From positions 1 to 64,000 of the IMG/VR virus record IMGVR_UViG_3300018080_000165: DNA of 64,000 bases; one strand, 5' to 3'. Positions within the stretch are counted from its first letter, which is position 1. Each line of letters starts with the position of its first letter. The DNA comes from a virus. This document shows, piece after piece, positions 19,555 through 28,311 of the stretch. The notes beneath the pieces are model-generated. The model was not told the origin of the DNA, did no database searches, and saw only the letters and a program-made list of their open reading frames with translations. A program made the position numbers and the translations under genes.

Positions 19555-20370
19555 CTATGCCATGCCGAGAAACTTGTGAACCTGTGGGACAAACCTGACG
19601 GCCAAACACCTTTTCACATCGTCGCTGAACGGAAAGGCAAAAGCACATTGATTTGTTTCACGTTGGTTTGAAAACACCTTGTCTTTTTCGGAAAAGATTC
19701 CACTCTCCAATATCACCTTTATCGCATCTGGATGGCCGTCAGCGGGTTGGATGAAAACTTCTCTCACAAAGACTTCTTCTTTCAGGATTTCCTCGACTTC
19801 CCTCATGTCCTGTTCCGTGCCGACAACGAACTTGAAATAGCAATTCGTCATATAACGGACCAATGTAGGAAGCGCACTGCGCCTACCGGAGCTAGAGAGT
19901 TTCGGAGAAATGATCCATGCGTCAATGCAAACGAAATGTTTCGGATCGCACTTGTCCAGAAGTTCCCCGTTCGTTTCGATTGAAGTCCCGAACGCCGGTT
20001 CGATCTCTTTGCAGATTTGAACAATCTGTGGAAGGAAGATAGTAGGCTCACCGCCAGTGAAAACAACATGGCGCTTGTGAAGAGGAAAAGACTTCAAAAC
20101 AGAAATAACATACTCGACAGATAACGAAAGGTGTTTTGTTTCCGCCTGACTCGGTTTGATATTTTCCGGTTTGTAGCCGCTATCGCACCAACTACATGTT
20201 CGATTGCATCCAAGAGTCCTCAGAAAAACAGAAGGAAGGCCAACTGTTGGACCTTCCCCGGAAATCGTCTCATAAATTTCATGTACACCAATTTCTTTAG
20301 GAGTTCCTTGCCTCCGCATAAGATGTATTCGTTTCCCAAACGCGAAGGGAGTCCAGTCTTGCGGATTCAT
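19555..20370 (-). CDS. queE: 7-carboxy-7-deazaguanine synthase (radical SAM)
   Basis: EIYETISGEG, FLRTLGCNRTCSWCDS, VVFTGGEP, IETNG, ISPK, PQVHK. Confidence 0.92.
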   Translation of the reverse strand: MNPQDWTPFAFGKRIHLMRRQGTPKEIGVHEIYETISGEGPTVGLPSVFLRTLGCNRTCSWCDSGYKPENIKPSQAETKHLSLSVEYVISVLKSFPLHKRHVVFTGGEPTIFLPQIVQICKEIEPAFGTSIETNGELLDKCDPKHFVCIDAWIISPKLSSSGRRSALPTLVRYMTNCYFKFVVGTEQDMREVEEILKEEVFVREVFIQPADGHPDAIKVILESGIFSEKDKVFSNQRETNQCAFAFPFSDDVKRCLAVRFVPQVHKFLGMA

Positions 20371-20713
20371 GCTCGAAACACTCCTTCATCTCCGCGAACC
20401 AATGAAGCGCCAACACTTCAACCGTAGGGTCTTGATGGATTATGAACACGTGTTCCCTGAAGCCGCCCTCAATGAGAACGCCCGCGAGAGGATCGTCTAT
20501 TTTGAGAACGACTTTATGATCCCATCTCTCCACGACGTGTTTCAACTTTTTGAGTTCCGCGAAGTCCACCACAAATCCGTTGTCGCCTATGTTGCCGTAG
20601 GCCGTCAACTCCACGCGGTAGTTGTGCCCGTGCAAGAAACGACACTTCCCTTCGTGCCGCATCAACCTATGGGCGATAGAGAACTCGCCCAAAAATTTCG
20701 TTACCTTGACCAT
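20297..20713 (-). CDS. queD: 6-carboxy-5,6,7,8-tetrahydropterin synthase
   Basis: AHRL...GKCRFLHGHNY, VVDFAELK, WDH, PTVE, RVWET. Confidence 0.92.
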   Translation of the reverse strand: MVKVTKFLGEFSIAHRLMRHEGKCRFLHGHNYRVELTAYGNIGDNGFVVDFAELKKLKHVVERWDHKVVLKIDDPLAGVLIEGGFREHVFIIHQDPTVEVLALHWFAEMKECFEHESARLDSLRVWETNTSYAEARNS

Positions 20714-20717
20714 TAGT

Positions 20718-20915
20718 TTACCTCATTCCTAGGCTACCTCTTCCTTTGTCCTTGCACGCATTCCGACCGAGTTTTTGTTCGATCCACACTTGCGCCATGG
20801 GCCGATCTTCTTTCTTCAACGTCTTGAAATCCTCAAAGCACTCATTACACACGGCATGTCCCGCGATTGTCCTATGAGGATTCCCTTCGTTTTCCCGGCA
20901 GGCGCAACATCTCAT
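20718..20915 (-). CDS. Small Zn-finger protein
   Basis: CCAC...VCNEC. Confidence 0.5.
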   Translation of the reverse strand: MRCCACRENEGNPHRTIAGHAVCNECFEDFKTLKKEDRPMAQVWIEQKLGRNACKDKGRGSLGMR

Positions 20916-20918
20916 ACC

Positions 20919-21224
20919 CTACTCTCCTTTGTCTTCTTCGGATTTTTCACCTTCATCTTCCTTGGGCGCTTCTTCAGGGGATACGACAGTCTTCGGAGGA
21001 GCGTCAAAGACGTACTCGACAGTCTTGTTCTTTACGGCTTCGGTGAAATTCCGAAACATGTTCACGCAATCGACACGGTTCTCGTAGCCTTGCCCGCCTT
21101 GCGAGCCGGTGCCGAAGAGATAATTCCCGTTGGCACTGTACACGCTTACCTCGTGTTTGGCTTTCTTTCCCTTTCCCTGCCTGCTGAACACGACTTGATG
21201 AGTCATCTTTCCTGAAATCGCCAT
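20919..21224 (-). CDS. YegP/DUF1508-like protein (an in-frame upstream TM segment from ~21329 is possible)
   Basis: SANGNYL...SQGGQGYENRVDC pattern; AAGGAG RBS at ATG 21224. Confidence 0.5.
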   Translation of the reverse strand: MAISGKMTHQVVFSRQGKGKKAKHEVSVYSANGNYLFGTGSQGGQGYENRVDCVNMFRNFTEAVKNKTVEYVFDAPPKTVVSPEEAPKEDEGEKSEEDKGE

Positions 21225-21386
21225 TGATTCGCTCCTTTCTTTCTCTTCAATCTTACTTCTCCAAAAAGCAAAAAACGACAATGCTCCCACAAGAGCTATG
21301 ATCGTGAGCGCATACATTAGGTCTACCATGTGATCTCTCATGGTTTTACTCGCTCGTGATTCGAAGTTCTCCAAAACAGCGCGTCG

Positions 21387-21676
21387 TGGCTCCCCCGCCT
21401 GGATTCGAACCAGGAATCGCGGATTACGCAGAAAGACGGAGCCTCCCAACAGTAACGGCACGATGACAAACAGCACAGAGCAACACGCACTTCTCAGCTT
21501 CTTTCCGCAGTCGTTCATATGATTCATTACACCCAGCAATTACAAATAGCTTTCGTATGCCTTTTCGATGATGAAAGTCAAAGCCTTCTCGCCCATCTCG
21601 CGTCGGCGTTTTGTCTTCGTCCCTTTCTGCATTTTCAATCTCCTTCGCCGTCGTGATACCATTTCACCACAGGGAA
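21387..21676 (-). tRNA. Split/interrupted tRNA (Asn-like): 5' half 21676-21647, 3' half 21426-21387
   Basis: Acceptor TTCCCTG/CGGGGGA + G + CCA; D-arm GTGA-AATGGTA-TCAC; perfect T-arm CCTGG-TTCGAAT-CCAGG; anticodon loop replaced by a ~220-nt insert. Confidence 0.7.
21424..21632 (-). pseudogene. Decayed HNH endonuclease inserted in the tRNA anticodon loop
   Basis: AAGGAG RBS + MQKGTKTKRRREMGEKA, then in another frame DFHHRKG...EAEKCVLLCAVCHR...SA*. Confidence 0.65.
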
Positions 21677-22243
21677 TCATTTTATGTGCTCCAGGATTTC
21701 ATCCTTGACTTGCAAACCCGCTTGCCCGAGCACGACGCAGACTTTGGTCGCCGCATGGATGTCACCAGTTCCCGTGCATACACACGCATGGTGGGCCTTG
21801 GAGAGAACGCAAACGGCTTCAGGTTTGAGCCTTTCTTCAAGCTCTGCGGCGATTCTATGCGTGAACTCTTCTTGAAGAGTTCCGACCTTCGAGAAGAATT
21901 CAACCAACTGTGGAAGTTTCGAGAATCCGACGATGTGTTTTCCTGGTAAATAACCGATTCCGACTGTCCCATAGAACGGCACGAAGTGATGTTGGCAGAT
22001 CGATACGAAACAGATGTCTCGCATGACAACGATGTCGTTCCCTCTTGATTTGAACAACTTGAAGTCGAAAGGTAATCGGTGAGGATAGCGATCATTGATC
22101 TTGTCCTTGTTCGCTGTCATCTGTTCAAGCATCTTGACGACACGCCGGGGAGTCTCCAGCGTTTCGTTCTTCAGCTTTATGCCTAGATGGTGGCACATCC
22201 GGGCATAGGCTTTTTCAGCCGATTTACGCTTTCTGGCGTTCAC
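21677..22243 (-). CDS. folE: GTP cyclohydrolase I
   Basis: ETPRRV, SICQHHFVPF, GFSKLPQLV, LQEEFT, HHAC. Confidence 0.92.
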   Translation of the reverse strand: MNARKRKSAEKAYARMCHHLGIKLKNETLETPRRVVKMLEQMTANKDKINDRYPHRLPFDFKLFKSRGNDIVVMRDICFVSICQHHFVPFYGTVGIGYLPGKHIVGFSKLPQLVEFFSKVGTLQEEFTHRIAAELEERLKPEAVCVLSKAHHACVCTGTGDIHAATKVCVVLGQAGLQVKDEILEHIK

Positions 22244-22925
22244 AGAACTCCTCCCAACCCTTCTTTCGGAGTAAGCAAGCTGGACATTTTCCGCATCCGT
22301 GTCCCCAACTGTGTTTGCCTAACCCTGTGTTATAGCAAGTCGCTGTTTCAGTCAAGATGGTTTCCAGAACGCCCAACTCATCCGCTGCTTCAAAGATGCG
22401 CGCCTTCGTCATGTTTATTAACGGCGTGAACAGGCGCACAGTGTTCTTAGGCAATCCCAAGGCGAAGTTGATAGCGTCTTCACACGCAGCAACAAACTCA
22501 TAACGGCAATCAGGATAGCCGCTGGAATCCGCTTGGCACACGCCGCTGTAGATGTGCTCTATCCCCCGGCTGACGGCCACTCCGGCAGCGATAGAGAAGA
22601 ACACCATGTTCCGGCCAGGAACAAACGACGTGGGCAATCCCTTGAACCTCTTGCTTTCCTCGATCTTCTCAAAACTGTACCCTGTCAGAGCGGAATCGAG
22701 GAGTGCTCCGTAGTTCTTCAAATCAACGGTGTCGTGCTTGCGGACTTCGAAGATTTTCCCTATCCGCTTTGCTTGGAGCAGTTCCATCTCATGCCGCTGG
22801 CCGTAACAAAAAGACAGAGCATCCACGAACGGATACTTGAAGTTCCGTTTCATCAGCGCAAGACAGGTTGCCGAATCCTGTCCGCCGGAAAGAAGAATCA
22901 GTGCGCCTTTTTGTCCTGATTCCAT
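22224..22925 (-). CDS. queC: 7-cyano-7-deazaguanine synthase
   Basis: LLSGGQDSATC, YGQRH, TSFVPGRN, SGYPDCR, TCY...GCGKCPACLLR. Confidence 0.93.
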   Translation of the reverse strand: MESGQKGALILLSGGQDSATCLALMKRNFKYPFVDALSFCYGQRHEMELLQAKRIGKIFEVRKHDTVDLKNYGALLDSALTGYSFEKIEESKRFKGLPTSFVPGRNMVFFSIAAGVAVSRGIEHIYSGVCQADSSGYPDCRYEFVAACEDAINFALGLPKNTVRLFTPLINMTKARIFEAADELGVLETILTETATCYNTGLGKHSWGHGCGKCPACLLRKKGWEEFCERQKA

Positions 22926-23596
22926 TTCTTGTACACCTTCTGTGCAGAGGTTATCGCGGAAGCCCGAACCAAACATGCGAGGCACACTTCGCAACCTTTT
23001 GGATCGTAGTTGCAGGAATTCGTTTTTTCAAGATCGATGCCGAGACTAAGCGCGAGCAAAGCAACTTGATGCTTCTGGAATCCGCATTCAAGAAACGGCG
23101 CTCGTATCTCGGTGATTTCGTCTTTCGTGAAGCCGCCGACTTCCTGAAGTTCCCGATACGTGTCAAGGAAAGCGGAAGTGCGATCCGAATGCGGTTCCTC
23201 CTCTTCGTGATGGAAACCCACGAACAGGTCCATCTCTTCTATGCTGGCCAAACAAGCGCCCTGTGTGATGAGGAAAGTGTTCCTTCCGTTGATGTAGTCC
23301 TTGGCAATGGAACTGCGTCCAGGTTCTATCTTCTCGCCAAAGCGGAAAATCGGCCCGCCTTTGACTTCATCTTTCATCGGTATGTCAGCCCTGTGCCTCA
23401 CCAAGAATCCTCTCCCGAGAACTCCTTGATGATACTCGACGTACTCTATGGACTTTTCTGTTGTCACTTGCCCGAAGTCAACGACCAAGTTGATGATCCG
23501 TTCTTCAGGGTTCACTCCGTACACAAAGGGGTTCTTTGCGATGGCATAGAACAGCGCGGTAGAATCTAGTCCTCCAGAAGCCAGGATCACGGGCAT
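22898..23596 (-). CDS. Divergent QueC paralogue (PP-loop ATPase)
   Basis: ASGGLDS, DFGQ, YINGRN, SCNY...GCEVCLACLVR; YPDCR replaced by HSDRT. Confidence 0.8.
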   Translation of the reverse strand: MPVILASGGLDSTALFYAIAKNPFVYGVNPEERIINLVVDFGQVTTEKSIEYVEYHQGVLGRGFLVRHRADIPMKDEVKGGPIFRFGEKIEPGRSSIAKDYINGRNTFLITQGACLASIEEMDLFVGFHHEEEEPHSDRTSAFLDTYRELQEVGGFTKDEITEIRAPFLECGFQKHQVALLALSLGIDLEKTNSCNYDPKGCEVCLACLVRASAITSAQKVYKKWNQDKKAH

Positions 23597-24000
23597 TTTC
23601 TTTCTCCTTCCGCTGTGCAACGTATCCTCACACCGCCGCGAGAGTTGAACGTGGTACTCACACTCACAGTCAAAGGATCGATGGCTTTCAAGAAGTCATC
23701 TCGAATCCTTGCTGTGATGCTTTCCTGAAACGCCTTGAAGTTCCTGTAGCTCCCCAAGTACAGCTTCAGCGACTTCGATTCACAGATGCTTTCGAAAGGC
23801 GTGTACTGTATGTCGATTGCCCCGAAGTCCGGTTGTCCCGTCACCGGACAGAGAGACGTGAACTCTTCGAAAGAAATGCAGATACTCGGCGTTGGATGCT
23901 TCACTTGGAAAGGAACGCCTACGAGCAAGGATGGCGAATATTCTTCTGGAAACGGAACCACTTTGCCGAGCGGGATGTCTTCCATGGCCGTACCGTCCAC
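23587..24000 (-). CDS. queF: NADPH-dependent preQ0 reductase (type I QueF)
   Basis: EFTSLCPVTGQPDFG, ESKSLKLYL QueF motif, FQE, RGG. Confidence 0.92.
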   Translation of the reverse strand: MDGTAMEDIPLGKVVPFPEEYSPSLLVGVPFQVKHPTPSICISFEEFTSLCPVTGQPDFGAIDIQYTPFESICESKSLKLYLGSYRNFKAFQESITARIRDDFLKAIDPLTVSVSTTFNSRGGVRIRCTAEGERKCP

Positions 24001-27734: not shown

Positions 27735-28311
27735 TTACGCCCTCCTTTTTCTCTGCTTCGTAAGCCAGCCCCAAGATCGACCAAGTTTGATGTCTGTAAT
27801 CGTAACTTGATGAACACCAAACTTCCTAGAGATTTCAGTTGGGCCTTCACCTTGCGCTAACAATCGACAGATACGGCGCACATCTCTTTCCTTCAACTTA
27901 GCCCCGTTTTGCTTCGATCCTTGAACATGCGTTCCGTGCCGCTTTTTGTCAGCTATGTTTTCTTTCTTAGTCCCCCAAACCAAATTGCCGATCCTGTTAT
28001 TGGCCGGGTTCCCGTCCAGATGACGGCATTCCATGCCTTCAGGACACGGGCCGACGAAAGCAAGAAGCACAAGACGGCAAACCTTGAAGTTGAACGACTT
28101 GTTGCTAAGGCTAAACGTAATGATCGGTCTTCCGTTTTCCGAGATGTTGTGCGGGCGTATCCTGGCCGTCTGGCCGATGAAGTGTCTAAAGCCACGACAC
28201 GCCCCCTCTTGTTTTTCGCGCCCAAAAAGAACGCACACGTCCCTGGTCGGAGACTTCATATCCTTCCCATCCGGGAATGGGCTTCCAGATTTCTCTCTTC
28301 CGCCCGCCCAT
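27735..28311 (-). pseudogene. NUMOD4-HNH homing endonuclease split by a +1 frameshift
   Basis: 28311-28186 encodes EIWKPIPGWEGYEVSDQGRVRS...L*; HNH (HLDGNPANNRIGNL) lies in the +1 frame to 27735. Confidence 0.75.

Follow-up and report, generated by a model that had tools for sequence, protein, structure and literature searches.

Free-standing homing endonucleases reside in the tRNA gene cluster of phage T5, where they are represented by the HNH nicking enzymes F-TflI/II/IV, and group I introns interrupt the anticodon loops of bacterial tRNA genes, including cyanobacterial tRNA-Leu(UAA), tRNA-fMet and the tRNA-Ile of Azoarcus, the last with an intron of about 205 nt. Some of these bacterial tRNA introns carry a homing endonuclease of their own. 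In phage T4, the homing endonuclease SegB is encoded inside a tRNA cluster and recognises the T-psi-C motif (PMC2330249), and Lak megaphages contain "enigmatic", unclassified tRNA introns (PMC6784885). Here, we explored a virus locus in which an Asn-like tRNA gene is split at the anticodon loop by the remnant of an HNH endonuclease gene, and compared it with each of these systems.

The window, that is, the whole stretch of DNA analysed (64,000 nt), corresponds to the initial 64 kb of an IMG/VR virus record of 76,077 bp, with an estimated completeness of ~79%. Nearly all genes of the window lie on the minus strand, and the replication genes are of bacterial type, namely, a family A polymerase (PolA), a DnaB-like helicase and RecA. 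The locus is located inside a 7-deazaguanine cluster with the order queF-like gene, divergent queC, queC, folE, split tRNA, 140-aa ORF, 65-aa zinc-finger ORF, queD and queE. On the minus strand, the folE stop codon is followed by 29 nt of a tRNA 5' half, an insert of 221 nt and a 40-nt tRNA 3' half ending in CCA (Table 1), such that the tRNA starts at the very base after the folE TGA. An earlier reading of the same letters without database searches (hereafter, the sequence-only reading) had placed the start of the 5' half directly after the folE stop and had described the halves as separated by an HNH-bearing insert of ~220 nt, and in both respects it was accurate.

Table 1. Features of the split tRNA locus, in window coordinates
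Feature	Positions	Strand	Details
folE (GTP cyclohydrolase I)	21677..22243	-	PF01227, 3.5e-39; TGA stop 21679-21677
tRNA 5' half	21648..21676	-	acceptor 5' strand, U8/G9, D arm (GTGA/TCAC, loop AATGGTA), position 26, anticodon-stem positions 27-30
Insert replacing tRNA positions 31-35	21427..21647	-	221 nt; no Rfam family at E<=10; fold z-score 0.18
RBS and 30-codon basic ORF	21540..21646	-	RBS GAAGGAG 21646-21640, ATG 21632-21630, TAA 21542-21540
HNH core remnant	21427..21588	-	GFDFHH ... KCVLLCAVCHRAV ... LSA; residues 26-79 of P0001; stop TAA 21426-21424
tRNA 3' half	21387..21426	-	TAA (positions 36-38), anticodon-stem TCCGC, 4-nt variable region, T arm, acceptor 3' strand, G73, CCA
140-aa ORF, next gene downstream	20919..21341	-	ATG 21341; N-terminal hydrophobic segment; without family match

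Seven DNA runs contain the locus; they belong to six studies, of sediment (2018) and seawater (2021). Three contigs (X2, X6 and X7) are identical across it and differ at a single SNP, which falls in folE at position 21775. Since independent assemblies, among them X6 and X7 from runs other than those marked as the source, agree over the locus, an assembly artefact is excluded; the split arrangement is real and fixed. Neither an insert-free allele nor an intact HNH gene in the same site was found. The one contig that skips the insert (X8) was rejected as an insert-free allele: it has 18 other letters (with the anticodon loop CTTTGGA, of the Gln-UUG type) and unlike flanks, and represents an unrelated tRNA. 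An IMG/VR scan with FolE yielded two loci only, at 30% identity, and FolE falls into a cluster of 99% identity that is encoded on contigs of ~96 kb.

All parts of the tRNA other than the anticodon arm are intact. The acceptor stem is paired at 7/7 positions, two of them G-U, for which the chance expectation, considering the acceptor stem alone, is (6/16)^7, or about 0.001. The D stem (4/4) and the T stem (5/5) are likewise fully paired, the T loop reads TTCGAAT, the bases engaged in tertiary interactions (U8, G18 G19, and T54 T55 C56) are kept, and the 3' half contributes the discriminator G73 and an encoded CCA. By contrast with these features of a canonical decoding tRNA, there is no anticodon stem-loop with U33 and no anticodon: tRNA positions 31-35, and with them the first two bases of the anticodon, are absent, and the only anticodon-stem pairs left are C28-G42, G29-C41 and G30-C40, exactly the three of five pairs, around a missing anticodon, that the sequence-only reading had counted. 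Run without introns, ARAGORN reports zero tRNAs in the window and in the whole 76-kb record, so that no other tRNA gene is found in the record by this program; it makes no call on the two halves joined directly, and the Rfam search gave no tRNA match at the split locus. When the five letters ACTGT are supplied as positions 31-35, ARAGORN recognises tRNA-Asn(GTT) at default settings.

The 25 nt at the 3' end are identical to those of seven IMG/VR tRNAs, all of them Asn(GTT), and also to those of Streptomyces-phage tRNA-Asn genes, whereas an exact search of IMG/VR with the 22-mer of the 5' half found no match. Within a set of 239 tRNAs that have the D-arm 19-mer in common with the locus, the best matches to the 5' half are Asn(GTT) genes and the best matches overall are Gln(TTG) and Asn(GTT) genes, with the arm scores of tRNA-Gln(TTG) genes equal to those of Asn; the acceptor stem is one transition apart from the Asn type. 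Judging from the 25-mer identity, the outcome with ACTGT and the best matches shared by Gln(TTG) and Asn(GTT), the shell appears to be of the Asn type, with a degree of ambiguity toward Gln. The original description as Asn-like thus holds, with the qualification that the arms also resemble tRNA-Gln(UUG) genes. The D-arm 19-mer was discarded as a marker of host or tRNA type because, in metagenome and genome scans, it proved common to Trp, Gln, Asn, Gly and other tRNAs and identified no host. The exact 19-nt motif also occurs in a conserved Nostocales sequence (L132, L140, L142 and about 40 other Nostoc/Nostocales loci) that ARAGORN does not recognise as a tRNA.

The surroundings of the split tRNA had suggested a connection with queuosine. 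The location inside a 7-deazaguanine cluster is as described; the functional link, for its part, is circumstantial and consists of adjacency. Given that tRNA-Asn genes are recurrent in the sampled phage tRNA clusters and that the TGT/DpdA family (PF01702) had no match across the 76-kb record (~79% complete), the position of the split tRNA in the que cluster may be incidental. The preQ1 pathway encoded here (window positions 19555-24000) is complete, comprising FolE, QueD, QueE, QueC and QueF, and is accompanied by a second, divergent QueC.

The insert contains the C-terminal part of an HNH endonuclease. The remnant matches phrog_3106, one of the PHROG HNH families, at E 1.3e-12 over profile positions 176-226 of 252, and has 1171 homologous proteins in a representative library, to which only residues 26-79 of the HNH frame align; an ORF of Roseobacter phage CRP-227 is 53% identical to it, and a Pfam search of the remnant gave no match. 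The HNH core motif (D/E-x-H-H ... N ... C-x-x-C-H) is recognisable, with the invariant H32, C59, C63, C66 and H67 kept. V stands in place of the N of the motif, as it does in P0088, an intact relative, and since this replacement as well as that of the final H by T are found in intact relatives (P0088, P0142, P0108), neither is a sign of decay. What is missing lies upstream. In intact small relatives, of 76-130 aa, DFHH is preceded at a distance of about 20 residues by a GGxCxxCG zinc knuckle; this knuckle, which holds the first CxxC zinc pair, is missing from all three frames of the insert, and the HNH frame contains no ATG, GTG or TTG start, so that the remnant falls short of a complete endonuclease ORF at both counts. 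The 3' end, on the other hand, is complete, given that the remnant shares its last alignment column with the C-termini of P0142 (76 aa, 56% identical) and P0108, and its junction with tRNA position 36 is accordingly a clean insertion edge. The HNH stop codon TAA coincides with tRNA positions 36-38 in the anticodon loop, in agreement with the sequence-only reading.

The RBS and ATG noted previously in the insert are there, and their frame ends after 30 codons. This frame differs from that of the HNH core, and the frame break proposed before DFHH is better described as the loss of the N-terminal zinc-knuckle segment of a mini HNH gene. The 30-codon ORF shows no homology to HNH N-termini (BLASTP against P0082 produced no alignment), and that the RBS and ATG once belonged to the HNH gene is our guess. 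Read from further upstream, the same frame forms a very basic ORF of 46 codons (RRRRR, KTKRRR; 21540-21680, minus strand) that runs through the tRNA 5' half into the insert and whose ATG overlaps the folE stop (ATGA); its upstream extension may be open by chance. Elsewhere in the window there is an apparently intact HNH endonuclease of a different family (174 aa, 27735-28259, minus strand; phrog_1492 and phrog_59, ~1e-31), unrelated to the remnant, of which no second copy was found in the 76-kb record.

Taken at face value, an Asn-type shell lacking exactly positions 31-35, a decayed HNH gene whose clade lives in phage tRNA clusters and the failure to find a splice or ribozyme solution (see below) favour the first of the two origins offered by the sequence-only reading, a homing nuclease that invaded and killed a tRNA. 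Thus, we consider it probable that a free-standing HNH homing-endonuclease gene entered the anticodon loop of the only tRNA gene of this phage, destroyed the tRNA and then itself decayed. The starting state would have been a tRNA of the Asn(GUU) type, encoded by the single tRNA gene of the phage and lying flush against folE. A small free-standing HNH gene from a clade at home in tRNA clusters would have lodged in the anticodon loop, presumably through homing, with its natural C-terminus and stop landing on tRNA positions 36-38 and with positions 31-35 being lost. The endonuclease gene would have decayed afterwards, losing the zinc-knuckle segment and an in-frame start, and the RNA now transcribed from the locus would have no function. 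Since the anticodon is gone, the tRNA gene is most likely dead.

The relatives of the remnant are indeed habitual neighbours of tRNA genes. A profile scan of IMG/VR with the HNH sequence returned 80 loci, 31 of which have a tRNA within 1.5 kb and 26 within 400 nt. Typically, the HNH stop lies a few bases from the tRNA 5' end or 10-11 nt inside it, and the abutted or overlapped tRNA is Asn(GTT) in seven of the loci (L259, L260, L261, L289, L334, L344 and L345). In four cases, the last 10-11 nt of a mini HNH ORF are shared with the tRNA-Asn that follows (L260 363-671, L261 1366-1689, L344 1405-1719 and L345 745-1059); in L260, inspected by eye, the stop codon is U8-A9-G10 of the tRNA. Among cultured phages, Salmonella phage SPLA5a and Klebsiella phage NDO71 have the order tRNA-Tyr, HNH, tRNA-Ile, and Gordonia phage ClubL has an unannotated HNH copy just after tRNA-Asn. 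These relatives live in tRNA clusters with neither intron nor intein, as expected of free-standing homing endonucleases. In cultured roseophages, an unannotated HNH ORF lies between the DNA polymerase and thymidylate synthase genes (CRP-227, L250 1267-1671, as well as CRP-361, -114, -113 and -171). In its tRNA-cluster habitat, the clade (26/80 loci, and the Salmonella, Klebsiella and Gordonia phages) resembles SegB, likewise a selfish, intron- and intein-free endonuclease gene among phage tRNA genes. Unlike SegB and most of the HNH relatives, which lie between intact tRNAs, the gene described here is inside an anticodon loop and the tRNA is destroyed; furthermore, the nuclease fold is HNH as opposed to the GIY-YIG of SegB, and the present copy is itself dead.

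This same habit is also a counterpoint to an invasion: the HNH genes of relatives lie beside tRNAs, and ARAGORN places them inside a split tRNA in only 2/80 loci of the first scan and 0/12 loci of P0142 relatives. The search for intact HNH homologues flanked by tRNA halves, proposed along with the sequence-only reading, was therefore successful in two loci, L299 and L315, with the remaining loci not inside split tRNAs. In L299 (1311-1984, on a 230-kb phage contig), an intact HNH of the clade is contained in a CCA-ended tRNA shell with an unclear anticodon arm. L315 (1188-1968, on a 190-kb phage contig) is a nested case, in which an intact HNH of the clade lies in a split tRNA; its insert opens with a tRNA-like piece, and the 3' side contains a full CAT anticodon loop.

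The preference of the clade for the 5' side of complete tRNAs, often Asn, also invites a different history, in which the halves derive from two tRNA-Asn copies, a resident and a cassette-borne spare, that flanked the HNH gene, after which deletions stripped the first of its 3' part and the second of its 5' part. Such a configuration exists in L289 (on a 250-kb phage contig), where the HNH gene lies between tRNA-Asn(GTT) genes at 1086-1173 and 1649-1722, the upstream one being 88 nt long with an extended variable region. However, this history requires two deletions, the second of which would have to end exactly at the natural HNH stop, with the HNH C-terminus at full length when compared with P0142 and P0108. 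Moreover, the acceptor strands of the two halves pair at all seven positions, both halves best match the same Asn type, and upstream of the HNH genes of L259, L260, L261, L289 and L334 there is no 5'-half remnant. We regard this two-deletion origin as improbable; the present state would be equally dead, and history alone differs.

The second origin offered by the sequence-only reading, a tRNA-scaffolded or intron-like element, is not supported. An intron giving a working tRNA could be removed by self-splicing, by a bulge-helix-bulge endonuclease, or by end processing and ligation. In its favour, one can cite the unclassified tRNA introns of Lak megaphages, the small anticodon-loop inserts in similar metagenome tRNA-Asn genes (L109, L113), and the fact that ARAGORN, once introns are allowed, reports a tRNA with a 201-nt intron at the locus. 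This call, however, the only one obtained in this mode, is a poor "Leu(aag)": residue 33 is a G, position 26 is lacking, and the variable arm would have an implausible length of 21 nt. We regard it as spurious. Neither a group I core (Rfam RF00028) nor any other Rfam family was detected at E<=10 with permissive filters between positions 20500 and 22500, which bears out the sequence-only reading as far as the group I core is concerned. By inspection of the exon junctions, no splice boundaries give a 5-bp stem and a 7-nt loop with U33, and no bulge-helix-bulge motif (3-nt bulge, 4-bp helix, 3-nt bulge) can be drawn there. An archaeal splicing endonuclease is, in any case, not expected given the bacterial-type PolA, DnaB and RecA, and families of RtcB and RNA ligases are absent from the 76-kb record (~79% complete).

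Predicted RNA structure offers an intron no further help. The fold z-scores against shuffles are 0.01 for the 290-nt RNA and 0.18 for the insert alone, that is, no better than shuffles. The pairing of the insert ends that had been proposed as a closing helix exists as an 8-bp complement in the sequence (21630-21623 with 21435-21428), but the helix is absent from the minimum-free-energy fold, whether the cloverleaf is enforced or left free, and would stand 17 nt off the 5' stem and 1 nt off the TAA of the 3' half. A complement of this length is equalled by 37/2000 shuffles in 50-nt end windows (p about 0.02) and by 23/300 shuffles anywhere in the insert; it exceeds chance weakly, and to this mild extent it is a counterpoint to a dead tRNA. 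With no ribozyme and no anticodon, the RNA is probably not spliceable into a decoding tRNA, and a functional intron is highly improbable. As for the metagenome tRNA clusters L109 and L113, they contain several tRNAs with anticodon-loop inserts, including Asn-like ones with the same D arm as here; the inserts are a 21-nt hairpin in L113 (2248-2340) and of 47 nt and 59 nt in L109 (5200-5318 region), and other long tRNAs of L113 measure 90 and 93 nt (2638-2727 and 2734-2826).

The comparison with known introns leads in the same direction. Like the bacterial group I tRNA introns, the insert is about 200 nt long and is located in the anticodon loop of a bacterial-type tRNA; unlike them, it has no core, almost its whole length is filled by the RBS and ORF remnants, and the anticodon bases are missing rather than split. 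Like the Lak megaphage introns, it is a ribozyme-free insert interrupting a phage tRNA gene. The Lak inserts, however, leave both exon halves complete, so that the tRNA is restorable there, whereas here five positions of the tRNA have been lost and the insert lacks tRNA-like ends of its own.

A further possibility is that the locus still yields a useful RNA that does not decode. Such a tRNA-shaped RNA would be cut by RNase P at 21676 and trimmed at the 3' end to the CCA by RNase Z or exonucleases, giving a stable 290-nt RNA and punctuating the operon, and the shell may originally have been a processing or stability module of the endonuclease gene (a "tRNA-shelled" homing gene) that outlived its cargo. 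Consistent with this, the three remaining arms (acceptor, D and T) are preserved, together with an encoded CCA and the canonical tertiary bases; the tRNA begins immediately after the folE stop; and no promoter-like or terminator-like site was seen between folE and the 290-nt unit, which is thus probably co-transcribed with folE. Furthermore, L299 provides a complete CCA shell around an intact HNH of the same clade, with L315 as the nested case. The preservation of the shell is also a counterpoint to a dead tRNA: all remaining arms and tertiary bases are without decay while the function of the HNH gene is lost, so that the shell could still be under selection. On the opposite side, a recent insertion accounts equally well for the intact arms. 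The insert is flanked by anticodon-stem remnants and by the TAA of an Asn loop, which are predicted if a real tRNA was hit and are needless in a purpose-built shell, and imposing the cloverleaf makes the structure 5.9 kcal/mol less favourable than the free fold, itself no more stable than those of shuffles. On balance, we consider an RNA of this kind possible but unlikely, and slightly less likely still its specific form, in which a 290-nt, CCA-ended, anticodon-less RNA is excised from the que-operon transcript, with the shell of "tRNA-shelled" homing genes kept as punctuation next to folE.

The general plan of such an RNA recalls tmRNA, in that the 5' and 3' ends form a CCA-ended tRNA-like domain around a segment with a short ORF. 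Unlike tmRNA, the shell has a full D arm and no G3-U70 alanine pair (positions 3-70 are C-G), and the internal ORF is the remnant of a homing endonuclease, not a tag peptide; the tmRNA search by ARAGORN was negative in the window and in the record. If the shell were nevertheless in use, it would mean that mobile genes can employ tRNA-shaped ends as modules for processing. The link with queuosine, in turn, would matter only if an intact tRNA-Asn occupied the same spot in relatives.

Returning to the destruction of the tRNA by an invading nuclease gene, the reading we favour, the wreck is most likely an ordinary by-product of the traffic of nuclease genes in phage tRNA genes. Perhaps the more useful outcome of this analysis is a side result, the clade of HNH endonucleases of 76-130 aa that are repeatedly wedged at the 5' ends of phage tRNAs and whose genes are often unannotated in cultured phages. 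The locus itself would be a clean, datable snapshot of the erosion of phage tRNA sets by selfish nuclease genes, in which the sole tRNA gene of a phage of roughly 96 kb was probably removed by an intron-less mini HNH gene that has since died.
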